DNA of 64,000 nt from Candidatus Parcubacteria bacterium (lineage in GTDB: Bacteria > Patescibacteriota > Patescibacteriia > Patescibacteriales > UBA12075): positions 50,124 through 114,123 of the forward strand of contig PKTK01000013.1 of NCBI GenBank assembly GCA_002869165.1. The letters run 5' to 3'. The stretch's first letter is position 1. Every line of letters begins with the position of its first letter. The notes beneath the pieces are model-generated. The model was not told the DNA's origin and made no database searches. It was given only the letters and a program-made list of their open reading frames with translations. The position numbers and the translations under genes were made by a program. This document shows, piece by piece, positions 22,990-45,825 of the stretch.

Positions 22990-24543
22990 TTAATACGTAT
23001 AAGTTGCTATTATTTCATCACTTGGATTTAATAAATATGCTTCATCACCTGAATTGTTCCAAATCGCCGAGTAAGTATGACACCAATACAGCTCTTGGCT
23101 AGTATCCTCTCCACAGCCAGTAAATACTTTAAAAGACTCTCCTGAAGCAATACCAAAATCATCAAATACATACGACTTGCCACTTCCATCTCTAATTTCA
23201 TAATCATCCATACTCAAAGCCTCACCATTGTTTTGTATCTCTATATATTCATCCTCCTCTTTATCACTAGCTACCCCATCATAAAATATATTTACAATTT
23301 CAAGTTCTGACGAACTACTTGCCTTCACCAAACTATTCATTCCACCAAATTCCAAGCAAGCACCATCTGCCCATATACCTTTTTTGTTTTCCTTGGCCCG
23401 AGCTTCGGCTAATTTGTAAATCCCCGCATATTTACTAGCTACATTATAAGTATACTCGTTAGCATATCCTTCTTCTATCATAAGCTCAGCAAAATTTTTC
23501 CCATTAGGCATTATTACGTGCCTGAGAAGTCTGTCGTATTTATCTAAATTTCCTTGTGTTTCATCAAACTCAAGTTCTACATAAGTTCCTTCTAATATTG
23601 TCTTGGCGTATTCACTGGCTTCTTCACCAAAGCACTCTTCTGCTCGATATGAACTCATCACCTCTGGTGTATCCATACCTATTACCCTTACACTAGTCTT
23701 CTTACCATTTTCATAAACCAAAAAGGTGTCACCATCAACCACATAGTCAACATAGTACATTCTATTCTCTATAACTGGCTCTACAATATCCTTAGCTCCC
23801 TTTTGTGACTCAAGAAGATCAATAATTTTTACTCCTGTGGTATCAGCTGTTCCAAAACCCGTGATAGTCTCTCCGCCTATCACTGTGAAGGGCACACCTC
23901 GTATTTCTATACCATAAACTTCTTTAAATTTTTCCAAAATATCTCTATTAGCCTCATCATACCATGTCTCCATCATTACGACTTCGATATCATCTCTAGC
24001 AAGCACCAATTCATCCAAAAAGGCTATTTCATTATGACAATGCGGACAACCAGAACCGTAAAACAAATATAGTTTTTGTTTATCGTTATCAATTATTCGC
24101 TCCTCGCTCACTTGATAACTTGAGTTCATAACTATTTCAGAAAGATCACTTGTTCTGATACCAAGCCCCAGATCACGCATAACCTGAAAGGCATCCACTG
24201 GTTTTCCTAGATAATGCAAATGCAAGTCAAGCGGATTTATATAATAGGCCTCCCCAGAGGCTTCTACTCGCAAAACTATTCTTCCCGATAAACTAGCAGG
24301 AGCAATCATTTTCCAGGAAGAAAAATCCTTTTCATTTACCCCAAGCCCAAGCTCTCGCATTATCCTAAAAGCATCTTGAGGTCGAGACAAAAATATCCTC
24401 TCCTTGGTACTAGGCTCAACATACCATGCTTGCCCTTCGTCCTCAACTTGCAAAAGTATCCGTCCAGCCAAGCGTTCTCCCATATCCTGGGCTAAAACAG
24501 GTAAAGCAAAAAATATAAAAATAAATATTAATACTTTTTTCAT
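22990..24543 (-). CDS. Secreted multidomain protein: tandem N-terminal repeats, thioredoxin-like CPHC domain, staphylococcal-nuclease (SNase) domain, lamin-tail domain
   Basis: Has a signal peptide, then YGSGCPHCHNE. The SNase motif is VVDGDTFLV...VRVIGMDTPE. The lamin-tail-domain motif is EDEYIEIQNNGEALSMDDYEIRDG. Confidence 0.75.
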   Translation of the reverse strand: MKKVLIFIFIFFALPVLAQDMGERLAGRILLQVEDEGQAWYVEPSTKERIFLSRPQDAFRIMRELGLGVNEKDFSSWKMIAPASLSGRIVLRVEASGEAYYINPLDLHLHYLGKPVDAFQVMRDLGLGIRTSDLSEIVMNSSYQVSEERIIDNDKQKLYLFYGSGCPHCHNEIAFLDELVLARDDIEVVMMETWYDEANRDILEKFKEVYGIEIRGVPFTVIGGETITGFGTADTTGVKIIDLLESQKGAKDIVEPVIENRMYYVDYVVDGDTFLVYENGKKTSVRVIGMDTPEVMSSYRAEECFGEEASEYAKTILEGTYVELEFDETQGNLDKYDRLLRHVIMPNGKNFAELMIEEGYANEYTYNVASKYAGIYKLAEARAKENKKGIWADGACLEFGGMNSLVKASSSSELEIVNIFYDGVASDKEEDEYIEIQNNGEALSMDDYEIRDGSGKSYVFDDFGIASGESFKVFTGCGEDTSQELYWCHTYSAIWNNSGDEAYLLNPSDEIIATYTY

Positions 24544-24572
24544 AAATAAATTTATTTACTAACTATTATTTA

Positions 24573-27500
24573 TTATACATTCTTAAAAAATAAAAATCTA
24601 ATTAAATAAATAAAAGCTACTAAAAATATTACCCCCACGATAATCAAACCATAAATTTTCAACCTATTGTCTTTTCTTTTTTTAAGTGTCCATTCTTTTT
24701 TTTCAATACTTTCACCAAGCACTTGTCCTTCATTATCGCCTCGCTCAATTAATTCTATTTCATTTTCATTTCTTAGTTGCAAACGTCTGCCTGAACTAGA
24801 ATTCTGCACTATTCCTCTAGCCAGAACTCTATCTCCCAAAGAAAAAGAAGACAAAAAATCGTTACTAGCATTTTTTAAATACACTTGTGTTTCGCCACTT
24901 TCATCACCCAAATATACTTTATCAGTTTGAATATCAATGATTTCTGCTTCTACCTGTGCCAAGCTTGCTTCTTGAATTTTGTCAATTTCCGAACAATTAC
25001 ATTTTTGAGTCTTTAACTCCAATCCATTTTTTATTACTTGAATATTACTTGCTTCCTTGGTTTTGACCCGCAACTCGCTACCTGTTTTAGACACTTCTCC
25101 ATTCACCTCTATCAAATCTCCAATTTCCAAATCTGGAAAATCTTTGTAATAACTATAAATTTGCAAACCAAGAGAGTCATCAGATATATAAAAATATTGA
25201 CTAGACAATTCTCCAGGCAGAGAGCTTACTATTCCTTGAATAGCTATTTTTTTTGATAAATATTCTTGATTTAAATCCTTAATATTTATATTATTTTTCA
25301 GTTCAAACTGACTTGTACCTTGTGCCAAAAAAACACTTCCTCCTTTTTTTTCTGAAACAGATGAATCAACAAGAATTTTATTCAAATTACTAGGACCATA
25401 GACTTCCCCCTCTTTGGTTTTTCCATATTCTTGAAAATCTATCACTTCACCGTTTGGGGCAATTAGCCTGACCTCATCATCAAAATTATTAAGTGCTATA
25501 CCAGAATCCTCTCGACTAAGATTGTAATATTCACCCGCCTTCAAAAAAACATTATCGGTAAACTTGTATGGCCTTGAACCTCCTTCCATATCATCCACAC
25601 TCCAATTCAAAAGATTAATATCATTTTCACTACTATTAAAAAGTTTGATATATTCTCCTTCTTGGTCACTGCCAACTGGATTAGGCAAGAATTCATCAAT
25701 CTTAATATCAGAAAAATCTATTTGCAGATCAGCGCTAGTTGCTTGACTCAAGTCTAAACTCCAATCAAAAACAACCAGTTCTTTTTCAATTTGTTTATCA
25801 AATTCACCATCATTTACAACCAAAGTGACTAAATATTTTCCTGATTTGCCGAAAATATGATCAGGATTGGGAAATTCAGAATAAAAACCATCATCAAAAT
25901 CCCAGAAATATTTAAGTTCGTCCTGATCAGGATCAATCGTATCACTACTATCAAAAATAACTGGCATGCCAACGAATAAATTCTCAACTACTGAAAAATC
26001 AGGAATTGGTTCTCGATTGGGTAATTCTATCTCATTTGTTTCACCTGGTGTCAAATTCGTACTCCAACTACAATCAAGATTAGGCAACACCCCCAAAAGC
26101 TCTAAATCTTTAGTCAAGCAATTCAGACTCATCCCCTCACTTGAATTTTTGTAATTCAAACTATCAATTGCCTTTTTTTTATCGATCTGAAACAAATAAA
26201 CCGTATCACCAGAATTATTCAAAGCTAAATTCGTCTCATCTTTAAAAAAAACTAAATAATCATGTGAATCAATATAAAGATACCTCTCAATTCTATAATT
26301 ATACTCACTCTCATCACCAAGTTGCCAACCATAAAGGTTGATTGCTTCTTCGCTTCTGTTATAAAGCTCAATATATTCTCTATCTGCATCCACTCCATCT
26401 GGATCAGGATATATCTCGCTTATAAATATAGCATTTTTTATATCTGCACTTGTTTTTAACTCATCTTCGCTAATAACATTACTTTTACCCTTGGTCACCT
26501 GACTGGTAACACAAAAATCAACTGAATCATTGCCAGTATTTCTGCCATCTTCTATACGAGCCAAAGAAAATGGATCCTTGGCTACAATTGCATTGTCACT
26601 AGGGTCCTCATCGCTCCAATCTCCATAACACAAAGAGTCAATATATACTCCACTTGAATCACGAAGAATAACAATATCCCCGGTGTTATTTAAATTTCCT
26701 TTTAGTTTTTCAATAACCAAAAACCTTTCACTCCCACTTCTACCAATAGTTCCTGTAAGGGATGTTTTGGCTCCACTTCCTTCTTCCAAAAACCAACCAC
26801 TCAAATCTATATCCTCTATACTTGTATTAAAAAGCTCGACCCATTCATTCTCACCATCGATCGGGTCGCTTACAATTTCGTTTATTACTACAATCCCAGA
26901 AAAATTTATTTCTTCATCACTCGATTTTATTTTGGTATTTTCTCCATTCTCCTCCCTAACAACTTGGTTGTCTGTACTAGTGGCCTCGTTTTCCTCACTC
27001 TGCTCCAAGTCATTACTAGAGTTATCTTCTTCTTGATTACTTTCATTGTTTGAATTATTAATAATATTTTCTTGACCTGGTGTGCCACCAACATCATCAC
27101 TGGTCACCCAAACACCACCAGAATTTAAAGACATTGTTTGTTTGGTGTCATTGTCTCCAGATGACCACGCGGTGCTAGCATTTATTTCATCAATTATCTC
27201 CCCTGAAGAATTTTTTAAAATTAAATACTCTCCGGTGTTGCCCAAAGCACCGGTATAGATTAACTGGGCCTCAACATCATCTACGCTAAAATCATCTGTT
27301 CGCTCAAGTAAATAATATGAATTGACATCAACAAAACCACTTAACTCAATTTCTGGGCTTCCGTCTTGCGCTACTAGCGTCAACCCGCTTAGATCAATAA
27401 CAACTGAGCCAGGGTTATATAGTTCTATCCATTCATCAGAACTTGAATACTCTGTACCCATCCAGGCAATCTCATTTATTCGTAATGAATCAGAGTTAGC

Positions 27501-27596
27501 CTGAACTATAGCCCCAAAATAAAAAATTCCTGAGATTAAAACCCCAAGAATCATGAATAATTTAATAAAATCAATGTTTCCTCCTTGTTTGTTCAT
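24573..27596 (-). CDS. Large surface protein with four lamin-tail domains, a PKD domain, OB-fold-like modules and a C-terminal TM anchor
   Basis: The lamin-tail motif recurs four times: INEI..DEWIELYN, NEWVELFN, REYIELYN and GEYIKLFN. The PKD motif is YFWDFDDG...GKYLVTLVVNDG. The C-terminal helix is IYGLIIVGVIFLVAFIYLI. Confidence 0.7.
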   Translation of the reverse strand: MNKQGGNIDFIKLFMILGVLISGIFYFGAIVQANSDSLRINEIAWMGTEYSSSDEWIELYNPGSVVIDLSGLTLVAQDGSPEIELSGFVDVNSYYLLERTDDFSVDDVEAQLIYTGALGNTGEYLILKNSSGEIIDEINASTAWSSGDNDTKQTMSLNSGGVWVTSDDVGGTPGQENIINNSNNESNQEEDNSSNDLEQSEENEATSTDNQVVREENGENTKIKSSDEEINFSGIVVINEIVSDPIDGENEWVELFNTSIEDIDLSGWFLEEGSGAKTSLTGTIGRSGSERFLVIEKLKGNLNNTGDIVILRDSSGVYIDSLCYGDWSDEDPSDNAIVAKDPFSLARIEDGRNTGNDSVDFCVTSQVTKGKSNVISEDELKTSADIKNAIFISEIYPDPDGVDADREYIELYNRSEEAINLYGWQLGDESEYNYRIERYLYIDSHDYLVFFKDETNLALNNSGDTVYLFQIDKKKAIDSLNYKNSSEGMSLNCLTKDLELLGVLPNLDCSWSTNLTPGETNEIELPNREPIPDFSVVENLFVGMPVIFDSSDTIDPDQDELKYFWDFDDGFYSEFPNPDHIFGKSGKYLVTLVVNDGEFDKQIEKELVVFDWSLDLSQATSADLQIDFSDIKIDEFLPNPVGSDQEGEYIKLFNSSENDINLLNWSVDDMEGGSRPYKFTDNVFLKAGEYYNLSREDSGIALNNFDDEVRLIAPNGEVIDFQEYGKTKEGEVYGPSNLNKILVDSSVSEKKGGSVFLAQGTSQFELKNNINIKDLNQEYLSKKIAIQGIVSSLPGELSSQYFYISDDSLGLQIYSYYKDFPDLEIGDLIEVNGEVSKTGSELRVKTKEASNIQVIKNGLELKTQKCNCSEIDKIQEASLAQVEAEIIDIQTDKVYLGDESGETQVYLKNASNDFLSSFSLGDRVLARGIVQNSSSGRRLQLRNENEIELIERGDNEGQVLGESIEKKEWTLKKRKDNRLKIYGLIIVGVIFLVAFIYLIRFLFFKNV

Positions 27597-28404: not shown

Positions 28405-29307
28405 ATGAAAAGTAAGATTCTTGCAATTTTTGGTGCACTTCTGCTCACTTCTGGATCAGCTTTTGCAACAGGTGGACCCGGTGGATGTAATGGTTGTCAG
28501 GATGACTTCGCATTTGTCCAGGTCGGTCAGGATCAGGTTCAGACTTATGACGGCATTTCCTTTGGAACTCCAATGGGTGGGTTAACCATTCATGGTGGAA
28601 TGCAGGCCCAGGAAAACAGTGGTATAGCGTTCAACGGGAATGGTGCAGCCTATCAATCCGAAGAGCAGGGACATGAATATGGCGGATCAGCTTACTCGCC
28701 ATTTGCATTTTCCGAACAAACCGGTAGCAGCCTCATGACTGCCGATAACTTCGGAACAGTTAATAACTGCGGCTCATTTACCTCGAATGCCGAGCAGCTC
28801 TATGATGCAAAAATCGAAAATTTCAACACGATAAACTTTACAGCTTCCGGAATCAAAGAAGGCTTCGGCCAGAACATTTCCGGTTTTGCTACTCCTGGCG
28901 CCGAAGTCGGCAACAGCCTTGGGCTGAATTCCTATAATTCATATTCATCCGGTTCTTATTTTGGCAATGACTATGTCTACAACGATGGCATGGCTTATAC
29001 CAATTCCTATCTCAACGGTGAAGTTGCCAACAGAGGCATGGGAATGTACGAAGGATCGATTTCCGGTTTCCAGGAAGGCAATACAATGACTGCTCAGGAT
29101 GGAAATGGTACTTTCCAGATGGCCGGTCAAACTGCCATAGCTGAACTCAGTCTGGATGCTTGCGCCATGGGGAGAGCCCACATAGAAGGTGGCGCCGATA
29201 TGTTCCAGGGTTACGGATATGAACAGTACAACCAGGGCAAAAACGGCTTCCAGTATCAAACTGGCTCAGTCTCAACCCAGGTGGAAGTAAGCACACACAT
29301 TCACTGA
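28405..29307 (+). CDS. Secreted G/N/Q/S/Y-rich protein, unknown function
   Basis: An AGGAGG Shine-Dalgarno sequence precedes it. The signal peptide ends AFA-TG. The composition is low-complexity and rich in G, N, Q and Y. The DNA is about 50% G+C in the sampled stretch. Confidence 0.55.
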   Translation: MKSKILAIFGALLLTSGSAFATGGPGGCNGCQDDFAFVQVGQDQVQTYDGISFGTPMGGLTIHGGMQAQENSGIAFNGNGAAYQSEEQGHEYGGSAYSPFAFSEQTGSSLMTADNFGTVNNCGSFTSNAEQLYDAKIENFNTINFTASGIKEGFGQNISGFATPGAEVGNSLGLNSYNSYSSGSYFGNDYVYNDGMAYTNSYLNGEVANRGMGMYEGSISGFQEGNTMTAQDGNGTFQMAGQTAIAELSLDACAMGRAHIEGGADMFQGYGYEQYNQGKNGFQYQTGSVSTQVEVSTHIH

Positions 29308-29382: not shown

Positions 29383-30249
29383 ATGAAGTATCTCAACACC
29401 CTGTTAGCATTATTCGCAATTTTACTTTTTACAGGAACTGCATTTGCTGGTGATATCTCCAACAATGTTGGTGCTAAATCTGATGCTAGCCAGGGCCAAA
29501 GTCAAGGCCAGACCAGCATGAATGTAAATGCCCCATCGCAAAGCACCTACGTCGACAACAAACCGACATTCGTTCAGTCTTTCGTATCCAAAGGCTCACC
29601 AACCCACCATATTCCAGCTGATATAACCTTTCCTGGTATGGTTGGAAACCTGACTTCCGGAAACGATAAAGGACCGAACTTCACCAGCATGTACGATCTG
29701 CTCAAATACAAATCAGTCGAAGTTGGTGGACCAGCAACTTTTACCCGTGAAGAACTCGAAAACATCGCTGAAGATGCCGAGAACTGGCTCGGAAATGATC
29801 CAGGGCTGGAAGCAAGGTACTATGGAGGGCAAAAACGTGAAGCCGTAGACGAAATCACTGTTCTCTTTTCCCCCACCATTATTGCAAAAACCAAAGACGG
29901 TCGTGTAAACGTATTCGTCGGCAAAAAACTTCCAGGCATGAAAGTCGCCGGCCAAATCCATTCCAGTGCTTGGGATGAGGATATTGTTTCACTTGACGTT
30001 CTAGCAGTTGCTTTGATCGATGCCATGAATAATGGTTGTAACGCAGCAGACGTTACCACTGAAGACGTAGTTGATGTTCTCAAAGTTGGGAGCTGGGGTC
30101 TCGGTTTTAACATGAGCGCAGCAAGTGCAACCATGGACTCTGGTCACAGTGCAATTTCCAGCGCAGGTGGCGGTGGAACAGGCGTTTCAGAAAATGAAGC
30201 CTATCATGCAAAGAAACCTTATCTGCAAATGGCCGTTGGAGTCAAATAA
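29383..30249 (+). CDS. Secreted protein, unknown function
   Basis: An AGGAG Shine-Dalgarno sequence precedes it. The signal peptide ends AFA-GD. The DNA is about 50% G+C. A terminator follows. Confidence 0.55.
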   Translation: MKYLNTLLALFAILLFTGTAFAGDISNNVGAKSDASQGQSQGQTSMNVNAPSQSTYVDNKPTFVQSFVSKGSPTHHIPADITFPGMVGNLTSGNDKGPNFTSMYDLLKYKSVEVGGPATFTREELENIAEDAENWLGNDPGLEARYYGGQKREAVDEITVLFSPTIIAKTKDGRVNVFVGKKLPGMKVAGQIHSSAWDEDIVSLDVLAVALIDAMNNGCNAADVTTEDVVDVLKVGSWGLGFNMSAASATMDSGHSAISSAGGGGTGVSENEAYHAKKPYLQMAVGVK

Positions 30250-31189: not shown

Positions 31190-31498
31190 CTACTTAATTG
31201 TTGCTTCAACCAAAGAATTCAAGACAAAATTGGCAATAGAATAAGAAGACAGAACTATTATTAGACCAGTCACTGCATTTACAAGTGTTTTTTTAGCCTT
31301 GGTGACTTTCACTACATTACCAGCCGATGTCATCCATACAAAACCGGCATAAATCACCAAACATAAGAAAATTATACCAAGTAAAGACAAAACAACCGCA
31401 ATCAAACCACCTACTATAGCTCCAATTCCTTGAGGTTCACCAAACCCAGCCACTCTGGCGGTTTGCTCTAACATTTCCATTATTAAACTTGTATCCAT
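31190..31498 (-). CDS. TrbC/VirB2-like small pilin-family membrane protein
   Basis: A two-TM hairpin with IYAGFVWMTSAGN..KVTKAKKTLVNAVTGLIIVLSSYSI. This is the pattern of the small type IV secretion pilin-like family common in Patescibacteria. It starts 2 nt after the smc stop codon. Confidence 0.5.
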   Translation of the reverse strand: MDTSLIMEMLEQTARVAGFGEPQGIGAIVGGLIAVVLSLLGIIFLCLVIYAGFVWMTSAGNVVKVTKAKKTLVNAVTGLIIVLSSYSIANFVLNSLVEATIK

Positions 31499-31499
31499 A

Positions 31500-34130
31500 T
31501 TATCTTGTTTTTACTTCATCTAACTTAACTGACAAAAGCTTAGAAATACCATCATCTCCCATAGTAACACCATACAGAATATTTGCCCTTCGCATGCTAG
31601 CACGATTGTGAGTAATCACAATGAACTGAGTTTTGTGAGATAGCTCATCTAGAATCTTAGCTAGCCTTTCTGAATTAGCCTCATCAAGTGCTGCATCCAC
31701 CTCATCCAAAACTACAAACGGAGATGGGTTGGATGAAATAATAGCACAAATCAAAGCAATTGCAGTTAAGGCTCGCTCACCTCCAGAAAGCATAGAAATA
31801 GAAGTAATTTTCTTGCCTGGAGGAGTGGCTTTGATTTCAATTCCAGCTAGACCTGTAGCGTTATGTTTTTGTAAAAACTTAATTTTTTTAAGATCCGTCA
31901 AGTTTACCTGTTCATCTTTTTTCTTTTCTTCAGCTTCAGTCTCTTTTTCTTTAACATTTTGCTCTTCCATTACCTTGTCAATCCGAGCAGATCCTCCATT
32001 GAAAAGAACCTTGAAATATTCCTCAAATTTCTTAGCAATCAATTTAAATTCCTTGTCAAATTTATCCCTGATCACTATATCTAACTCCTTGATCACCTTT
32101 TCAAGTGAATCAATAGTTTTACTCAAGTCACTAGTTTGATTTTCCAAAAAGTCATATCTCTCTTTTGTCGATGTGTATTCATTTTCAATAGCTGGATCAA
32201 TTCCGCCAATTTGCTCAAGTTGTCTTTTGATATAAGTGATTTTTTCCTTAGCTTCTGCTAGATTATCCATTTTCTCGTCTGTGTCTTTTTTTAGGGCCTC
32301 CATACTGCCTAGCTCTTCTCGAATCTCAATTTCCAAATCTTCAAGCTTGGTTTCATGACGAGTTGAATCAATTTTAATAGCTTGTAAATTATTATTCAAA
32401 CCATTGATCTCATTTTGCAGATTTTGCAAATCTTTTTGCAGGGCAAAAAGTTTTTGCTTTTGTTCATCTTCTTTTTGTGATACTTGAGATAGTTTTTCTT
32501 TAACCCCTGCAATCACCTCTTCTTGTTTTGTTAATTCTTTATTTAAGTCTTCTAATTCTTTTTCTTGTTTGCCATCTCCGACCTCACCAGAATAAGTGCT
32601 AATCTTTTGTGTGATAGCTGTTTCTTCGCTTTTTAGACTGGCTAATTTTTCATTTTGTAGTTTGATTCTTTCTCCTTTTGAACCAATTTGCAAATTTAGC
32701 TCGGTTATTCTTGCGCTTAGTCCTTCCTTTTCTTCACTAGCTTTTTCAAGGGAAAGATGAAGCTTGGTCCATTCTTCATTTGGACTTTCATCACTTTCTT
32801 CTTCTTCGGTTAATTTAATAGCTTTTTCAATTTCCTCCTCAAGTTCTCTGGCAACTCTCTTGATCTCCTCAATATCATCAAGACTTACTAATGTTTTTAA
32901 CTTGGCTGAAATTACAGCTAGCTGCTCCTTGATGTCCTCGCTCTCTTCAGTGTCTGCTTCAATCCCAATCTGCCTTAAGTCATTATTTATTTTTTGGATA
33001 TTTTTGTTTATTGTTTCTTTTTCACTATTAAGTTCAGTCATTGCTCTTTTTTCCTTTTCTATTTCTTGCTCAAGAGACTGAACATCGCTGGCGATATCAG
33101 TCATGCTTTGTCTAATATCTTCTTTTTTATTCATAAGGAATGATAAATCAAACTTTCCTTCGGCTTCTAGTTTTACTTCAATTTGTGCTTCAATTTTGGC
33201 AATTTGCCTAGTTAGCTCGTTCCGCTTGCTTTGCTCTCTGGATAGCTCAGCTTGTAATTCCTCAAATTCACTGCTTCCCAAACTCTCATTTTTCATTTTT
33301 TCAAGATCAGCGTTTAGTCCTGCAAGTTTCTTGTCTTTGGCAATTTTATCTTTTTCAATTTCTAGATATTCATCATTAGCCTTTTTAAACTTGGCACGTA
33401 AATCGTTCCATATTTCTGAATAATACGCAGTTTGCAAATCTTCAAGCTCTGTTTCAAGCTCACCTCTTTTTCTTAGTTTATTAACTTGTCTGGTTAAACT
33501 TTTAATTCGTGGCTCAATCTCCTGAACCAACATCTGAGCTTGTAGTAAATTCTCATAGCTGTTGCGCAATTTATTCAAAGCTTCATCACGCTTGATCTGA
33601 TACTGCTTTACTCCAGTGGCTTCATCAAAAAATTCCTTTCTCTCAGCCAGAGAAGTGTTCAAAAATCTCTCCACCATACCCTGACCAATCACTGAGTAAG
33701 TCTTTTGTCCAAAACTAGCCTTGGCAAGTAGCATCTGAATATCAGCCAATCTTACCTTGGAGTTATTGATTAAATATTCAGAATCTCCGTTTCGATACAA
33801 ACGACGAGTCAAAACAATTTGCGAATAATCAATTGGTGCTTTCTTGTCTTCATTATTTAAATGTAAAGAAACCTCGGCCATACCGAGTTTACCTTTCTTG
33901 TCGGAACCAGAAAAAATAACATCTTCGCTTTTTTTACCACGAAGTGTTTTCATACTTTGTTCACCAAGTGCCCAACGAACTGAATCAGCTACATTTGACT
34001 TGCCTGATCCATTTGGTCCAACTACTGCGGTGATTCCCCGCTTGGTTCCATCCAACATTCCAGGAAAAATCAAGGCGTTCTTATTGGCAAATGATTTAAA
34101 TCCTTGTACTTCAAGTTTTTCTAAAAACAT
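31500..34130 (-). CDS. smc: SMC-family chromosome condensation ATPase, short form (876 aa) with no recognisable hinge
   Basis: The N-terminal head is FLEKLEVQGFKSF...VVGPNGSGKSNVADSVRWALGEQS. The C-terminal head is LSGGERALTAIALICAI...VLDEVDAALD. The middle is continuous coiled coil with an acidic loop (TEEEESDESPNEEW). Confidence 0.85.
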   Translation of the reverse strand: MFLEKLEVQGFKSFANKNALIFPGMLDGTKRGITAVVGPNGSGKSNVADSVRWALGEQSMKTLRGKKSEDVIFSGSDKKGKLGMAEVSLHLNNEDKKAPIDYSQIVLTRRLYRNGDSEYLINNSKVRLADIQMLLAKASFGQKTYSVIGQGMVERFLNTSLAERKEFFDEATGVKQYQIKRDEALNKLRNSYENLLQAQMLVQEIEPRIKSLTRQVNKLRKRGELETELEDLQTAYYSEIWNDLRAKFKKANDEYLEIEKDKIAKDKKLAGLNADLEKMKNESLGSSEFEELQAELSREQSKRNELTRQIAKIEAQIEVKLEAEGKFDLSFLMNKKEDIRQSMTDIASDVQSLEQEIEKEKRAMTELNSEKETINKNIQKINNDLRQIGIEADTEESEDIKEQLAVISAKLKTLVSLDDIEEIKRVARELEEEIEKAIKLTEEEESDESPNEEWTKLHLSLEKASEEKEGLSARITELNLQIGSKGERIKLQNEKLASLKSEETAITQKISTYSGEVGDGKQEKELEDLNKELTKQEEVIAGVKEKLSQVSQKEDEQKQKLFALQKDLQNLQNEINGLNNNLQAIKIDSTRHETKLEDLEIEIREELGSMEALKKDTDEKMDNLAEAKEKITYIKRQLEQIGGIDPAIENEYTSTKERYDFLENQTSDLSKTIDSLEKVIKELDIVIRDKFDKEFKLIAKKFEEYFKVLFNGGSARIDKVMEEQNVKEKETEAEEKKKDEQVNLTDLKKIKFLQKHNATGLAGIEIKATPPGKKITSISMLSGGERALTAIALICAIISSNPSPFVVLDEVDAALDEANSERLAKILDELSHKTQFIVITHNRASMRRANILYGVTMGDDGISKLLSVKLDEVKTR

Positions 34131-34311: not shown

Positions 34312-35685
34312 TTAGAGTATTGTTGCTCCAAGTTCAGCAAGTTCGGATCTTTCACCCTTTTTAAGCTCAATATGAGCATAAAGCCTTTGGTCTTTCATTT
34401 TATCAATCAAGACACTTAGGCCATTGGAATTAATTCCCAAATATGGATGATCAATTTGACAAATGTCTCCTGTAAAAATAATCTTGGTTCCTTCACCTGC
34501 TCTTGTGACAATTGTTTTAACTTCATGAGGTGTCAGATTTTGCGCTTCATCAACTATCATATACATCTTCACAAGAGACCGGCCTCTAATATAAGCCAGT
34601 GGTTCAATGATTAACTTTTCCTCATCCAACATCTTTTGAAGTCTCTGAAACATTTCGGACTTCTCAGGAAATTGACTCCTTATCACAGCCAGATTGTAAT
34701 ACAAAGGCTGCATATAAGGCTTAATCTTGCTGTTTATATCTCCAGGAAGAAATCCAATGTCTTTGTTTGACAAAGGAACAATTGGACGTGCTAAAACTAT
34801 CTGACGATAGGAGCTCCTAGCTTCAAGCGCCGCTGCCAAGGCCATTAATGTTTTACCTGTGCCGGCTTTCCCACTAATAGTGACCAGCTTAACCTCGGGA
34901 TTTAATAAAGCGTGGACAGCAAATGATTGTTCGGCGTTTTTTGGAATAATCCCATATGCCTGTCTTTTAGAAACATGACGAAAAAAATGTCCTTCCCGCT
35001 CACCATCAGATTTAACAAAAGTTGCCAATGCAGATTTCTTGCCATTTTTCAATACAATAAACTCATTACAAGAAAACGAATTGGATTTTAGATTAAAATC
35101 ATCTACAGGAACACACTTACCTTCTTCATACAGACTATCAATTGCTTGAGAATTTACCCCTTCCTCCAGTCGACTTCCCGAATACAAATGCTCTACATCA
35201 ACATTGTCATTCGAATAATCTTCAGCATTTATCCCAAGCATGCAAGCTTTCATCCTGAGATTCACGTCTTTTGAAACCAAAACAACTTCCTCGTATTCTT
35301 TCTCTTTTGGATCAGCAGAAAAGCAATAAACAAAATTTAATATTTCGTTATCGTCTTTTTTCTTTCTAGGGAATGCCTTACTTAGATCATTATGGTATTC
35401 ATACTTATTGGGTTTGAGACGAATACAACCTCTGCCCTTACCAAGACTTACTCCTCCATTAAACATTGCCTTATCGTCAAAACTAGCAATGCGTCTGGTG
35501 AATGCTCTGGCATTATAGTTGTTTGTTACATTTCCTTTCTTAAAATCATCAAGTTCCTCCAAAACATGAGAACAAATAATAATATCATGCTCTTGAAAAT
35601 GTTCAGTACAAGAACTATCATGAAGGATTACATTTGTGTCAAGGATGAAAACCTTTTTCTTGCTACCACCTTGTTTCTTGGGCAT
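34312..35685 (-). CDS. PIN-domain plus PhoH-like ATPase (PhoH2/YlaK type)
   Basis: The PIN domain is VFILDTNVILHD. The PhoH Walker A is ISGKAGTGKTLMALAAA. Also present are VDEAQN and IIFTGDICQID. Confidence 0.85.
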   Translation of the reverse strand: MPKKQGGSKKKVFILDTNVILHDSSCTEHFQEHDIIICSHVLEELDDFKKGNVTNNYNARAFTRRIASFDDKAMFNGGVSLGKGRGCIRLKPNKYEYHNDLSKAFPRKKKDDNEILNFVYCFSADPKEKEYEEVVLVSKDVNLRMKACMLGINAEDYSNDNVDVEHLYSGSRLEEGVNSQAIDSLYEEGKCVPVDDFNLKSNSFSCNEFIVLKNGKKSALATFVKSDGEREGHFFRHVSKRQAYGIIPKNAEQSFAVHALLNPEVKLVTISGKAGTGKTLMALAAALEARSSYRQIVLARPIVPLSNKDIGFLPGDINSKIKPYMQPLYYNLAVIRSQFPEKSEMFQRLQKMLDEEKLIIEPLAYIRGRSLVKMYMIVDEAQNLTPHEVKTIVTRAGEGTKIIFTGDICQIDHPYLGINSNGLSVLIDKMKDQRLYAHIELKKGERSELAELGATIL

Positions 35686-37061: not shown

Positions 37062-37135
37062 GTATCTGTAGCTCAATTGGATAGAGCACTTGGCTTCGGA
37101 CCAAGGGGTTGTGGGTTCGAGTCCTACCAGATACA
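37062..37135 (+). tRNA. tRNA-Arg (anticodon TCG)
   Basis: GTATCTG..GCTC-AATTGGATA-GAGC-A-CTTGG-CTTCGGA-CCAAG..GTGGG-TTCGAGT-CCTAC-CAGATAC-A. Confidence 0.85.
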
Positions 37136-37163
37136 CAAGTTTTTATACTTAAAATTCATAAAA

Positions 37164-37237
37164 GGCTGGGTAGCTCAGATGGTTAGAGCGCGGCACTCAT
37201 AACGCCGAGGTCGAGAGTTCAATCCTCTCCCCAGCCA
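37164..37237 (+). tRNA. tRNA with CAT anticodon (elongator Met, or Ile2 if lysidine-modified)
   Basis: GGCTGGG..GCTC..GAGC-G-CGGCA-CTCATAA-CGCCG-AGGTC-GAGAG-TTCAATC-CTCTC-CCCAGCC-A. It lacks initiator features (positions 1:72 are paired, and there is no GGG/CCC in the anticodon stem). Confidence 0.75.
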
Positions 37238-37318
37238 CATACTTAATTCGGATTTTTGATTGTGGATTGCGGAGCTACAAATTCCGAATTCCAAAATCAG
37301 AAGTCCGAATTTTGATAA

Positions 37319-37391
37319 GCGCCCATAGCTCAGTTGGTAGAGCAGTTGCCTCTTAAGCAAATGGTCGCAGGTTCGAATCCTGCTGGGCGCA
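37319..37391 (+). tRNA. tRNA-Lys (anticodon CTT)
   Basis: GCGCCCA..GCTC-AGTTGGTA-GAGC-A-GTTGC-CTCTTAA-GCAAA-TGGTC-GCAGG-TTCGAAT-CCTGC-TGGGCGC-A. Confidence 0.85.
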
Positions 37392-37785
37392 CAAAATAAA
37401 GCGCCGCCTGAATAGGGCGGTGTTTTATTTTGTGTGACTAGCAGATGAGAACCTGCTCTGAGGTGCAGGGGAAGAATAAAAGACAAGCTATTTGCAAAAA
37501 TATTATCAAAAACTAAACATGTTATTTTGATGGTGTGAGGCTTCCGCCTCTTCGAATCCTGCTGGGCGCACAAAATAAAAGACGTCTCGAAGAGGCGTTT
37601 TTTGTTTTGTGTGACTAGCAGATGAGAACCTGCTCTGAGGTACAGGGGAAGAATAAAAGACAAGTTATTTGCAAAAATATTATCAAAAAACTAAACATGT
37701 TATTTTGATGGTGTGAGGCTTCCGCCTCTTCGAATCCTGCTGGGCGCACAAAATAAAAGACGTCTCGAAGAGGCGTTTTTTGTAT
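37372..37785 (+). repeat. Tandem array of about 179-bp units, each beginning with the tRNA-Lys T-loop-to-3'-end segment (att-like)
   Basis: TTCGAATCCTGCTGGGCGCACAAAATAAA occurs at 37372, 37551 and 37729. The two intervening units are near-identical and end in GGTGTGAGGCTTCCGCCTC. Confidence 0.85.
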
Positions 37786-43848: not shown

Positions 43849-44685
43849 ATGACAAACATAATAGACGGTAAAGCCGTTGCACAAAAAATTAAAGATCAAG
43901 TGAAAAATGAGATAAAAGAAAATAATCTCGACCCAGGACTCGCAGTTGTTTTAGTTGGTGACAATCAAGCTTCTCAGGTATATGTTAAAAATAAAAAAAA
44001 GGCTTGTGAATATGCTGGTATAAAATCTTTTTCTTTTAATCTGCCTAAAGAAACAGACGAAGAAGAACTTTTAAAATTAATTGAAAAATTAAACAAAGAC
44101 AAAGCAATAGATGGTATCTTGGTACAGCTCCCTTTACCAAAACATATCAATAGTACAAAAATATTACTGGCAATCAATCCTGACAAGGATGTCGATGGTT
44201 TTCATCCTGTAAACGTTGGCAAGCTTTACACTGGAGCTAAAGGGCTTAAGCCATGTACACCCGCAGGTATAATAGAACTTCTAAAAAATTATAATATTAA
44301 AATCTCAGGCAAACATGCTGTTGTTTTAGGTAGAAGCAATATTGTAGGTAAACCTGTAGCACAAATGCTACTTGAAAACAATGCTACAGTTACGATTTGT
44401 CATTCCCGCACAAAAGCTCTAGAAAAAATAACCAAAAAAGCGGATATTCTAATAGCTGCTATTGGAAAAGCTAAATTTGTAAAAAAAGAGATGCTAAAAA
44501 AATATGTGATAGTTGTTGATGTTGGCATGAATCGTGATGAAAATAACAAGCTCTGTGGTGATGTTGACTATGAGCAAGTCAAAAAAGTCTCCTCCTACAT
44601 CACACCTGTTCCCGGAGGAGTTGGCCCCATGACAATTGCCATGCTTATAAAAAATTGTTTAGAAGCACACAAAAACCTACATTAA
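43849..44685 (+). CDS. folD: Bifunctional methylenetetrahydrofolate dehydrogenase/methenyl-THF cyclohydrolase
   Basis: Contains [54 protein letters not shown] and [10 protein letters not shown]. Confidence 0.95.
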
Positions 44686-44729: not shown

Positions 44730-45197
44730 TTATTGACTATTTTTTTCTTTATCTTTCATTATATCTATACAATACCTAAAAAGCTTAGCTATTTTTATTT
44801 CTTCATTATTATTTTCAAGACTAGAATTTAAATTTTTACTTGTCTCAATTGTAGAAATAATTTTTTCATAATCAAATTCTTCTGGGACTTCCTCGTATAG
44901 ATAAATACCATCGATCAACTCATCCTCATTTAAACACTCTGTCATTGCTTCGATTTCTTCCATGTCAGAATCAAGAGGACAAATATAACTATGAATATCA
45001 ATACCCACTTTCTTTGCTTCTTTTTCAAGATTGGCTAATTTGTTTTTGCATTCCATTTCATCTCCAATAATAAGCACTGCCATATTTGGCCTAAGCTGAG
45101 CATCCCCAGCCTTGCCTTTATTTATAGCTACTATGTCTTTTACTATCTCATCTTTTATTATTGTAGCTTCATTAGCTTGGGGATTTTTTTTATTCAT
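44730..45197 (-). CDS. FolD N-terminal (catalytic) domain-like protein lacking the NAD(P)-binding domain
   Basis: PNMAVLIIGDEMECKNKLANLEKEAKKVGIDIHSYICPLDSDMEEIEAMTECLNEDELIDGIYLY parallels FolD LAVILVGD..S.VYV..K.KA.E..GI......L......EL...I..LN.D..V.GILVQ. It ends before the Rossmann domain. Confidence 0.45.
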   Translation of the reverse strand: MNKKNPQANEATIIKDEIVKDIVAINKGKAGDAQLRPNMAVLIIGDEMECKNKLANLEKEAKKVGIDIHSYICPLDSDMEEIEAMTECLNEDELIDGIYLYEEVPEEFDYEKIISTIETSKNLNSSLENNNEEIKIAKLFRYCIDIMKDKEKNSQ

Positions 45198-45825
45198 TTA
45201 TATAAGTTAAAAGTTTGTTAATGATTTTTTCCATTGACTGTGGGTGAGGAAGTAATACAAAATATGAATGAAATAATTTATCAGCTTCTTCCATTTTGGT
45301 ATTAAATATTAAAGCAGTACTAATGTCTTTTACTTTCTCTCTAATTTGCCCAACTACAGATCCTGGTAGGTCTTCTTTGAGTTCTGGAGGAGTTAGCAAC
45401 ACTTTTGATTCAACAAAGTCCCCCAATGCGTTTGCATAAGCAGATACAATAATATTGCCAACCTCCATAATTGCAGATTTCTCCATATCACCAAGCTTCT
45501 TTGAAGATCCAGCCTCTCTACCCATCAAAATATCAGACAAAGCAAGCGCTGATGGTTGAGAAAAAATATAGAGAATAGACCCAGAGAACTCATCGGTTAA
45601 CTCCAAATAAACTCCAGTTGCTTCAATAGAATCATCTATGAAACCAGCTAAATGTAATTTAAAATCATCAATTGGCGCAAAACGAATCTCGGGTACAGAA
45701 ATATTAATACGCTTATTTATCATTTGTGAAACAGCAGTAGCTGCATGACTAGAGCCAATATTACTAGTTTCTTTCAAGATATCAATCTCTAAATCATTTA
45801 GCTTTTTTACAATATCTTTATCCAT
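45190..45825 (-). CDS. cheC: CheC-type CheY-P phosphatase family protein (both active-site motifs intact)
   Basis: There are two exact matches to D/S-x3-E-x2-N-x22-P. The first is DILKETSN followed by 22 aa then P (..INISVP). The second is SAIMEVGN followed by 22 aa then P (..VLLTPP). At 211 aa its size is typical of CheC. Confidence 0.7.
   Translation of the reverse strand: MDKDIVKKLNDLEIDILKETSNIGSSHAATAVSQMINKRINISVPEIRFAPIDDFKLHLAGFIDDSIEATGVYLELTDEFSGSILYIFSQPSALALSDILMGREAGSSKKLGDMEKSAIMEVGNIIVSAYANALGDFVESKVLLTPPELKEDLPGSVVGQIREKVKDISTALIFNTKMEEADKLFHSYFVLLPHPQSMEKIINKLLTYINE

Follow-up and report, generated by a model that had tools for sequence, protein, structure and literature searches.

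Textbooks define SMC proteins in part by the hinge, which is credited with dimerization, DNA binding, and gate functions. In Rad50/SbcC, RecN, and the MukB/MksB/JetC group, the heads are of the ABC type, the coiled coil folds back, and the tips dimerize by means other than an SMC hinge. In Bacillus subtilis, the zinc hook of Rad50 can stand in for the Smc hinge (PMC5344682). The engineered zinc-hook Smc and Mini-Smc indicate that an Smc with joined tips can do without the hinge fold and that function is limited to particular arm lengths; natural Smc arm lengths are multimodal, at 163, 238, and 341 (PMC5344682). A hinge-less SMC clade was described in 2025 from ocean metagenomes as one small monophyletic cluster assigned to Actinobacteria (PMC12153180). 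We found no literature report of a hinge-less SMC in Patescibacteria.

The DNA analyzed here is a stretch of 64,000 nucleotides from Candidatus Parcubacteria bacterium (the window), which encodes an 876-aa Smc protein in which no hinge was found. The open reading frame of 2631 nt starts with ATG and runs without interruption. Its features, all on the minus strand, are the following.

31500..34130, minus strand: gene of the hinge-less Smc, 876 aa plus stop codon (ORF list, TIGR02168 score, and identical NCBI protein).
33621..34130, minus strand: N-terminal head half, residues 1–170, including Walker A and the Q-loop region (alignment with 5XG3, the head of B. subtilis Smc, begins at residue 1 of both and scores 193.5 bits).
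33993–34019, minus strand: Walker A GPNGSGKSN, residues 38–46 (motif position).
32970..33620, minus strand: N-terminal arm helix, approximately residues 171–387, with breaks at 284–286 and 324–326 (AlphaFold DSSP and pLDDT; a/d hydrophobic pattern visible).
33123..33179, minus strand: conserved arm discontinuity LEAEGKFDLSFLMNKK, residues 318–336 (family alignment; E318, L321, G325, and D328 invariant).
32769..32969, minus strand: tip module in place of the hinge, residues 388–454 (family alignment; AlphaFold fragment model with pLDDT 83.7).
32769..32810, minus strand: acidic loop TEEEESDESPNEEW, residues 441–454, the junction of the tip and the C-terminal arm (motif position and family alignment).
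32031..32768, minus strand: C-terminal arm helix, approximately residues 455–700, with breaks at 515–519, 607–623, and 642–646 (alignment and AlphaFold models).
32646–32708, minus strand: conserved island ITELNLQIGSKGERIKLQNEK in the C-terminal arm, residues 475–495 (family alignment).
32175–32210, minus strand: joint motif IGGIDPAIENEY in the C-terminal arm, residues 641–652 (family alignment).
31500..32030, minus strand: C-terminal head half, residues 701–876 (124.3 bits in the alignment with the same part of B. subtilis Smc).
31848..31979, minus strand: head insertion of about 44 residues relative to B. subtilis Smc, residues 718–761 (gap between the aligned segments 611–717 and 762–874).
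31752–31790, minus strand: signature motif LSGGERALTAIAL, residues 781–793 (motif position).
31683–31712, minus strand: Walker B VLDEVDAALD, residues 807–816 (motif position).

The protein scores 634.6 bits against TIGR02168 (SMC_prok_B), above the NCBI curated equivalog cut-off of 567.35; the match is split in two and leaves out the part of the profile that models the hinge. Pfam returns only SMC_N (residues 2–863) and generic P-loop families. The head halves of B. subtilis Smc align with it end to end at roughly 50 to 60% identity, with all motifs kept; in addition to those listed, RWALGEQS lies at residues 52–59 and the H-loop THN at residues 840–842. With every motif placed and the head scores given above, the two ATPase halves are as canonical as the initial annotation had them. 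The B. subtilis joint and neck align with residues 611–717. What the C-terminal head half adds is the insertion, which contains the conserved helix KKIKFLQKHNATGL, is conserved in the family alignment, and forms a helix at 738–755 in the AlphaFold model. The heads of the full-length AlphaFold model are poor (pLDDT < 50) and uninformative about head geometry.

Scores against other families are far under their cut-offs. Rad50 models reach about 30 to 42 bits (cut-offs 700–1087), RecN (TIGR00634) 37.3 bits (cut-off 407.85), and the ASRP family 72 bits (cut-off 300). A CxxC zinc hook at the apex, which the initial annotation did not see either, is impossible because the only cysteine of the protein, C795, lies in the head. 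Neither is there a MukB-type hinge, and the arms are much longer than those of RecN. Among the PADLOC defense models, mad3 scores highest (191 bits), followed by LmuB (77) and JetC (26), and JetA, JetB, JetD, and LmuA are not found among the neighboring ORFs of the window; an assignment to a defense system was rejected on these scores and on the lack of defense-operon neighbors.

A further possibility is that the gene is a paralogue whose product has a different role, for instance in DNA repair, in defense against plasmids or phages, or in DNA uptake, and that a canonical Smc–ScpAB is encoded in another part of the genome, of which only 64 kb are in view. The mad3 score and the surroundings lend themselves to this, as PIN-PhoH and pilin-like genes here and comM-like and recA genes in relatives hint at DNA uptake or repair. 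However, the curated threshold for chromosomal SMC is passed, the protein is far nearer to B. subtilis Smc than to the defense and repair SMC-like families, and a second SMC gene is found in 0 of 90 loci. Moreover, hinge-bearing and hinge-less proteins interleave in the head tree, as expected of orthologues with domain loss. Apparently no regular SMC co-occurs in the marine clade either (PMC12153180), a likeness to the Patescibacteria family. A paralogue is therefore improbable, and the protein likely still serves Smc-type chromosome organization.

The initial annotation had seen no hinge, and none was recovered by any profile or structure method. SMC_hinge was not found in the protein by Pfam, even at E ≤ 1. 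A custom hinge HMM, built from 11 sequences and run with --max, detected a distant Bacteroidota hinge as a positive control (E = 9e-8) and returned E of about 10 for the 876-aa protein and E > 0.4 for every hinge-less protein. Alignment of the tip with the hinge by hhalign had a probability of 0.1%, equal to that of control arm segments, and a PDB sequence search with the central 241 aa gave no hinge chain at E ≤ 10. The centre of neither of two AlphaFold models contains strands or a globular fold. Pfam, motif searches, and Foldseek recognized no hinge, hook, or other dimerization domain, where Foldseek with the full-length model tells nothing about the centre, as its poorly modeled heads dominate. 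A separate hinge-only ORF was found neither in the window nor in 10 related loci.

The source is a metagenome-assembled genome, which raises the matter of an error in assembly or annotation or of a gene in decay. This is effectively refuted by the uninterrupted reading frame, by the recurrence of the architecture in hundreds of independent assemblies, and by the family alignment, in which conservation is strong in the heads and the neck and extends to the tip motif. An identical NCBI protein comes from Candidatus Parcubacteria bacterium on a 124-kb contig, 119 further clusters from NCBI, ENA, JGI, and Logan (867–931 aa, 57–70% identity) share the architecture, and 75 of the 78 complete genes from independently assembled genomic and metagenomic loci are hinge-less. 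These data exclude the deletion in the assembly that the initial annotation had allowed for. About 260 database relatives have the same hinge-less architecture, and its sharing by hundreds of independent sequences is more than chance. We conclude that the protein is very likely a genuine hinge-less Smc.

The place of the hinge is taken by about 65 residues, consisting of a variable, flexible loop (388–398), a helix of about 18 residues (399–416), a tight turn with a conserved ExDI (417–419), a helix of about 22 residues (420–441), and a second variable, flexible loop, which is acidic (442–454). This tip occupies the exact place of the approximately 190-residue hinge in the hinge-bearing Patescibacteria relatives P0147, P0153, and P0185. 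Together with L005 and L078, these relatives (995–1076 aa) are 40 to 47% identical overall to the 876-aa protein and share its arm anchors and arm lengths: GxFDLSxL lies equally far from the head, the N-terminal arm ends near residue 388 in hinge-bearing and hinge-less proteins alike, and the C-terminal arm extends about 190 residues from the hinge or tip to IGGID. However, exactly at the position of the tip, they have a hinge that is detectable by Pfam (PF06470, E = 9e-26). Because a small conserved helical hairpin sits at the former place of the hinge, “minimal hinge” is a better description of the protein than “nothing.” A hinge relic was also considered, as MAFFT put LKTLVSLDDIEEIKRVARE under the C-terminal “TLIVDtlEdAKeIG” of the hinge, and was rejected on the control-level hhalign probability.

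The centre had initially been described as an uninterrupted coiled coil with one short acidic loop. This description has to be revised, as two variable loops (approximately 388–398 and 441–454) flank a conserved helix-turn-helix (399–441), and more breaks occur at 284–286, 324–326, 515–519, and 607–623. The acidic loop TEEEESDESPNEEW is present at 441–454 but is neither the sole loop nor the turning point; its length and sequence vary across the family, and pLDDT is low at 440–449. It was rejected as the apex because 417–419 is favored by the place at which relatives carry the hinge, by the way the arm lengths add up, by the AlphaFold prediction, and by the 412–424 coupling. The AlphaFold fragment model (pLDDT 83.7) places the apex near residue 418, and the best Foldseek matches of this fragment are antiparallel coiled-coil hairpins, including the Smc arm fragments 5XG2 and 5NNV. 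Likewise, covariation couples residue 412 with 424/425, which fits a hairpin apex; this is the only usable contact from mutual information and mean-field DCA, in which phylogeny and gap–gap couplings of indel-prone loops dominate the signal sought for the arm register.

Although the centre as a whole is variable, its best-conserved motif lies in the tip, where the conserved residues include I420, I423, L430, and I434. Its a/d positions are all hydrophobic, with additional hydrophobic e/g residues at 408, 426, and 438, and the fraction of hydrophobic columns is 0.29–0.33 compared with 0.25 in the arms, a small excess. The conserved motif and the a/d pattern indicate at the sequence level that the tip is under selection.

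Compared with B. subtilis Smc, the protein has the same head motifs, a conserved neck and joint (IGGIDP..EY), fold-back arms, and discrete arm-length classes. However, a hairpin of about 65 residues replaces a hinge of about 190, and each strand of the arms is shorter by about 100 residues. The arms are predicted to run out and then back as helices of about 220 to 245 residues each; the AlphaFold models are all-helical over residues 175–710 with a turn at 417–419, and the fold-back rests on this prediction. The discontinuity LEAEGKFDLSFLMNKK is shared with hinge-bearing relatives and absent from the class of about 745 aa described below.

An early model of SMC proteins was a long antiparallel intermolecular coiled coil. 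If two chains of the hinge-less Smc paired in this manner, with a composite head at each end, no hinge would be needed; the arrangement is topologically possible, and nothing points to it directly. The predicted turn at 417–419 between confident helices and the coupling of 412 with 424/425 fit a hairpin instead, and all solved SMC-family arms are intramolecular, which makes such pairing very improbable.

Hinge-less proteins fall into three discrete size classes, at about 745, 880, and 1070 aa. The span between the arm anchors is quantized at about 314, 439, and 608 residues, echoing the multimodal Smc arm lengths (PMC5344682). In the class of about 745 aa, the tip sequence is not recognizably the same motif as in the 876-aa protein. 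The indels between the size classes are symmetric about the centre, an observation that fits intermolecular pairing and fold-back equally and does not discriminate between them.

With both the hinge and the zinc hook absent, the initial statement that the protein must dimerize differently stands. We propose that the hinge-less Smc would act as a homodimer on DNA, in which the two tip hairpins may pack as a small four-helix bundle, for which the ROP protein offers a comparison. The loops flanking the tip could supply the flexibility that the hinge normally gives, and further links would come from lengthwise arm–arm contacts, ATP-driven head engagement, and the kleisin ScpA, if present. From the strictly discrete arm lengths, we infer the same mechanical coupling of heads and tip as in canonical Smc. 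Arm contacts aid the dimerization of hinge-less Smc (PMC5526789). The natural proteins fit both lessons of the engineered Smc of PMC5344682, which, however, is artificial and has a known zinc-dependent dimerizer, whereas the natural tip is without metal-binding residues. That the tip mediates dimerization is a plausible but tentative proposal.

Alternatively, the arm tips of a genuine hinge-less Smc may not be joined at all. The dimer would then form only through heads engaged on ATP, through a kleisin that bridges them, and perhaps through loose contacts between the arms. The result would be an open-ended clamp with no closed ring, in which DNA is handled solely in the compartment of heads and kleisin and the tip hairpin is just a stable cap. 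ABC-type heads dimerize on ATP by themselves, and this arrangement agrees with the lack of a recognized dimerization domain, with a centre that is less conserved than any other part of the protein, with a tip that differs among size classes, and with a marginal hydrophobic excess. However, a mere cap needs no pair of flexible loops flanking a conserved helix-turn-helix, and the arm lengths are tightly quantized, which in B. subtilis reflects coupling of the heads to a joined tip and rod formation (PMC5344682). Engineered Smc also required some dimerization domain at the tip, for which the zinc hook was enough (PMC5344682). Unjoined tips are thus unlikely. Taken together, we lean modestly toward the reading that the protein is the Smc of this organism, a condensin-type chromosome-organizing ATPase derived from an ordinary bacterial Smc by loss of the globular hinge, with the tip mediating dimerization.

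In a bootstrapped head tree, hinge-less proteins are never monophyletic, and hinge-bearing and hinge-less proteins interleave, which suggests repeated hinge loss among the Smc proteins of Patescibacteria. The marine Actinobacteria clade and the hinge-less Smc both have SMC-type heads and a fold-back coiled coil and lack a hinge and a CxxC hook (PMC12153180 for the former). The two differ, when their descriptions are compared, in that the Patescibacteria family belongs to another phylum and habitat, is very large, comprises three size classes, and apparently has more than one origin. SMC surveys that locate the arms via the hinge, such as PMC5344682, would have left such proteins out.

The hinge-less family is large and natural; it retains the textbook heads, neck, joint, and quantized arms and yet has 65 helical residues in place of the hinge. 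It thereby extends to nature what engineering had shown, namely that an Smc can do without the hinge fold as such. The family is a natural experiment on whether SMC motors need a hinge, with an architecture common to many relatives in the candidate phyla radiation, and its very small members, some of only about 745 aa, are probably tractable subjects for structural studies and single-molecule experiments. It also bears on the organization of chromosomes of about 1 Mb in ultra-small bacteria with reduced genomes and raises the questions of how the tips are joined, whether a closed SMC compartment is needed, and whether ScpAB is still used. It is possible, although somewhat doubtful, that Patescibacteria dropped the hinge several times independently and that their Smc arms either stay open or are joined by nothing more than a tiny bundle of helical hairpins without metal, possibly in the absence of ScpAB. 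If so, the hinge would be dispensable in nature, although it is regarded as a hallmark of all SMC complexes and has been proposed as their DNA gate, and a whole bacterial radiation would offer minimal SMC machines with three discrete arm lengths, on which models of how SMC complexes extrude loops and entrap DNA could be tested.

ScpA and ScpB were not found among the 30 window ORFs scanned with Pfam, and no ScpA or ScpB gene adjoins smc in any locus. A motif search of the window and 1.23 Mb of related loci, which has low sensitivity and covers a small part of each genome, found none either. For S. epibionticum, a cultivated Saccharibacterium, the annotation tables contain no KEGG or Pfam identifiers of ScpA or ScpB, nor any of SMC. 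The scpAB genes usually do not follow smc directly. The genes on either side of smc are the following.

31190..31498, minus strand: downstream pilin-like small membrane protein, 102 aa, a neighbor with no demonstrated part in the SMC system (ORF list, Pfam, and NCBIfam).
34312..35685, minus strand: upstream PIN-PhoH ATPase, 457 aa, a partly conserved neighbor (Pfam PhoH and PIN_4).

The pilin-like ORF begins 1 nt past the smc stop codon, as the initial annotation noted in calling it a VirB2-like mini-pilin. The gap and the pilin-like character hold, but the scores are below the curated cut-offs (Pfam T4SS_pilin, 24.3 versus 26.6 bits; NCBIfam Mbov_0395 pilin-like, 33.5 versus 40). The gene does follow smc, and scpA/scpB do not, but it is no substitute for scpAB; rather, the conserved order of smc, comM-like, solute-binding protein, pilin-like, RodZ-like, and recA genes is compacted in this window. 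The same adjacency is repeated in two related loci (L009 and L010), and the pilin-like gene lies 1.45 or 3.0 to 3.2 kb downstream of smc in about 24 others. On the other side, the PhoH gene is directly upstream of smc in three related loci (L001, L017, and L023).

The gene at window 31500-34130 (-) is a single unbroken ORF of 876 codons with an ATG start, and all of the canonical SMC head motifs quoted in the initial annotation lie where an SMC head predicts them:

Residues 38-46: Walker A, GPNGSGKSN
Residues 52-59: RWALGEQS
Residues 781-793: signature motif, LSGGERALTAIAL
Residues 807-816: Walker B, VLDEVDAALD
Residues 840-842: H-loop, THN

Over their full length, the first 217 and the last 113 residues match the B. 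subtilis Smc head (5XG3), scoring 193.5 and 124.3 bits, respectively, and the neck and joint (residues 611-717, including IGGIDPAIENEY) are also alignable to B. subtilis Smc. With TIGR02168, the NCBI equivalog for chromosomal SMC, the protein reaches 634.6 bits, above the curated threshold of 567.35; the match comes in two stretches and skips the hinge part of the profile. RecN, Rad50, and an archaeal SMC-related family reach 37-72 bits against cut-offs of 300-1000 and defence-system SMC-like models at most 191 bits. This pattern identifies the protein, at the level of sequence, as a bacterial Smc rather than an SMC-like cousin. A Rad50-type CxxC hook, reported absent at first reading, is indeed impossible because C795 is the sole cysteine. 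Compared with B. subtilis Smc, ~44 extra residues (718-761, window 31848-31979 (-)) are inserted in the C-terminal half of the head; the insertion is rich in acidic residues and lysine and terminates in a conserved helix, KKIKFLQKHNATGL. Insertions at this site also occur in other Patescibacteria SMCs, without this motif.

While the protein is an Smc by descent, head, neck, and arms, it lacks the hinge that defines the SMC architecture. Pfam returned SMC_N and generic P-loop families, with SMC_hinge absent even at E<=1. A PDB sequence search matched the heads and arms of many SMC proteins and no hinge-only chain, and the central 241 residues searched alone matched only spectrin-repeat proteins, weakly. 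A custom hinge HMM built on 11 hinge-bearing Patescibacteria relatives found a distant Bacteroidota hinge as positive control (E=9e-8); for the query and every other hinge-less relative, it gave E>0.4 at scattered positions. Likewise, profile-profile comparison of the tip region (residues 388-454, in hinge position) with the hinge alignment gave 0.1% probability, equal to control arm segments. The full-length AlphaFold model (pLDDT 68.7; arms 75-89, heads poorly modelled) is entirely helical over residues 175-710, and a second model of residues 290-530, made from 119 sequences, contains helix only (pLDDT 83.7). The top Foldseek matches of the latter were antiparallel coiled-coil hairpins, including the Smc arm fragments 5XG2 and 5NNV and an Smc5/6 arm; no match had E<1e-3 and none was a hinge.

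An identical NCBI protein belongs to a Candidatus Parcubacteria bacterium (locus tag C0583_06685; contig of 123,882 bp). After it come 119 clusters from NCBI, ENA, JGI, and Logan assemblies, with lengths of 867-931 aa and identities of 57-70%; PF06470 appears in the precomputed Pfam column of none of them (0/119). Hinge-less proteins made up 140 of the best 150 matches in a search of 1.84 billion cluster representatives. Scanning metagenomes with the family alignment as seed added another 80 loci. Complete SMC genes occur in 78 of all loci combined, and only three of these encode a hinge, namely two from Patescibacteria (L005 and L078) and a canonical Bacteroidota gene (L007). The hinge-less Smc family is large; as the samples were seeded by a hinge-less query, the counts speak to its size and not to the fraction of Patescibacteria that carry it. 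Named sources are Parcubacteria, 'Patescibacteria group', and one Saccharibacteria MAG (L003, 896 aa). An assembly deletion is excluded, since the same form recurs across NCBI, ENA, JGI, Logan, and the loci. With all six hinge tests negative and the architecture shared by independent assemblies, neither a concealed hinge fold nor a deletion accounts for the short protein. The initial observation is thus confirmed and its interpretation supported, with corrections to the reading of an acidic loop and of the neighbouring gene. Nothing on hinge-less SMC in Patescibacteria, CPR, or Parcubacteria was found in full text across the portion of journals covered; new here are the breadth of the family, its division into three classes of arm length, the presence of a 65-residue hairpin exactly in place of the hinge, and the apparent recurrence of hinge loss.

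Close relatives that kept the hinge (P0147, P0153, and P0185, 40-43% identical to the query) allow the site of change to be located exactly. In hinge-bearing and hinge-less proteins alike, the arm motif G-x-[FQ]-[DN]-L-S-[FW]-L lies 121 residues past the neck motif EIEPR, the N-terminal arm ends near residue 388, and the C-terminal arm reaches ~190 residues back from the joint motif IGGID. Residues 391-580 of P0147, a ~190-residue hinge (Pfam SMC_hinge 414-531, E=9e-26), correspond to query residues 388-454:

Residues 388-398: polar loop containing glycine, of variable length
Residues 399-416: first helix
Residues 417-419: turn, conserved pattern E-x-D-I
Residues 420-441: second helix
Residues 442-454: acidic loop, of variable length

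The central acidic loop described initially is present; given this mapping, it is not the turning point and instead forms the junction of the tip with the C-terminal arm. An apex near 418 is supported by the turn predicted by AlphaFold and by the coupling of 412 with 424/425, the sole non-gap coupling in mean-field DCA of 244 family members. The same DCA showed that the two tip-flanking loops co-vary in length, as expected if they oppose each other across a hairpin, although common ancestry could have the same effect. Within a centre that otherwise varies, conservation is highest in the tip helices. Their a/d positions are all hydrophobic, with additional hydrophobic positions at 408, 426, and 438; strongly hydrophobic columns are slightly more frequent in the tip (0.29-0.33) than in the adjacent arms (0.25). 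Two islands in the variable arms are also strongly conserved, LEAxGQFDLSFL (residues 318-336, window 33123-33179 (-); G325 and D328 invariant) and NLRISARxER (residues 475-495, window 32646-32708 (-); E487 invariant). Both lie at the same distance from the apex, are common to hinge-bearing relatives, and may be an elbow-like break or a partner-binding site.

The ATPase heads are intact, neck and joint are strongly conserved, the fold-back arms are constrained in length, and a small conserved helical hairpin replaces the hinge; the protein is very probably a real, functional, hinge-less Smc. We infer that it would still be a homodimer in chromosome organisation, with the tip hairpin as the best candidate for the lost dimerisation site. 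Two helix-turn-helix units of this size can make a four-helix bundle, which might be likened to the ROP protein, and the flexible flanking loops would give hinge-like articulation. We propose dimerisation through the tip only tentatively; it is plausible because, for example, arm-arm contacts add to the dimerisation of hinge-less Smc in vivo (PMC5526789). In the main rival model, the tips are unjoined altogether, and the heads and kleisin hold the complex together as an open clamp. Overall, we regard a hinge-less Smc that would dimerise through its tip hairpin as the best explanation, with moderate confidence.

The distance from EIEPR to IGGID is sharply quantised in hinge-less proteins:

Short class: ~314 residues, n=29, ~715-780 aa
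Mid class (that of the query): ~439 residues, n=165, ~840-930 aa
Long class: ~608 residues, n=10, ~1040-1110 aa

In hinge-bearing relatives it is ~576, equal to mid-class arms plus a hinge. The long class (P0121-P0133; loci L060-L066, ~1040-1110 aa) arose by two routes, with paired insertions of 74-90 residues in both arms on either the head or the tip side of the GxFDL break. The short class (P0143, P0144, P0197, and P0208; loci L084-L088, ~740-750 aa) lacks this break, and its tip has a distinct pair of short helices flanked by loops; with ~715-750 aa, these proteins may rank among the smallest of SMC type to have real Smc heads. Arm lengths of natural hinge-bearing Smc are multimodal (238, 341, and 515, with minor modes at 163 and 423), and only particular lengths function in B. 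subtilis (Burmann et al., PMC5344682). The query arms, ~217 and 246 residues per strand, are near the 238 mode. Relative to the mid class, the short and long classes have ~62 fewer and ~85 more residues per strand and would fall near the 163 and 341 modes, although the two analyses do not define boundaries in the same way.

A tree was built by neighbour joining from the heads and proximal arms (441 columns, 153 sequences, Bacteroidota Smc as root). The hinge-less proteins were not monophyletic in any of 100 bootstrap replicates, and hinge-bearing Patescibacteria sequences (n=11) were split among no fewer than three clades, usually four or five. Read literally, this crude tree with one outgroup implies several losses of the hinge. 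The short class appears polyphyletic in this tree.

As the initial annotation stated, scpA/scpB do not follow smc: none adjoins it in any locus, and a Pfam scan found neither among 30 window ORFs. A motif search of 1.23 Mb of related loci also found none; all three are weak tests covering a small part of each genome. There is no second SMC gene in the 90 fetched loci and no separate hinge-like ORF in the window or in 10 loci examined. The pilin-like gene does start 1 nt 3' of smc (window 31190-31498 (-)), as described; it is not a stand-in for scpAB. Many relatives share the order smc, comM/ChlI-like ATPase, solute-binding protein, T4SS-pilin-like, RodZ-like HTH_25 protein, and, in L002, recA (L002 8688-13889, L004 9451-13497), and the two intervening genes, the ATPase and the solute-binding protein, are absent from the window and from L009/L010 (8687-9001). 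The pilin-like gene is immediately 3' of smc only in these and lies 1.45 kb or 3.0-3.2 kb 3' in ~24 loci. Directly 5' of smc on the same strand is a PIN-domain and PhoH-like ATPase gene (window 34312-35685 (-)); PhoH occupies the same upstream position in L001, L017, and L023. Some Patescibacteria may have lost the SMC system altogether, an annotation-level hint from the cultivated Saccharibacterium Southlakia epibionticum, whose tables S1/S2 have no entries for SMC (K03529), ScpA (K05896, PF02616), ScpB (K06024, PF04079), or hinge (PF06470), while ParA and ParB are present and essential (PMC10633639).

Elsewhere in the window, two adjacent genes (28405-29307 (+) and 29383-30249 (+)) encode G/N/S/Q-rich proteins with signal peptides and no Pfam match, within 2 kb of DNA whose G+C is unusually high (0.44 versus ~0.33 elsewhere). 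At 22990-27596 (-) lies a gene for a 1007-aa protein (four lamin-tail domains, one PKD domain, one OB fold), and after it one for a 517-aa protein with staphylococcal-nuclease and lamin-tail domains; together they look like a surface DNA-binding/nuclease pair. A CheC/CheX-like phosphatase gene lies at 45190-45825 (-) in a genome from a group that is usually described as non-motile. A full-length FolD gene (43849-44685 (+)) adjoins an opposite-strand 155-aa ORF (44730-45197 (-)) that matches the FolD catalytic domain only and may be a remnant or split paralogue. Finally, the ORF called mechanically at 37175-37663 (-) shares its position with part of a tRNA cluster (Arg-TCG, Met-CAT, Lys-CTT; 37062-37392 (+)) and is therefore unlikely to be a gene.
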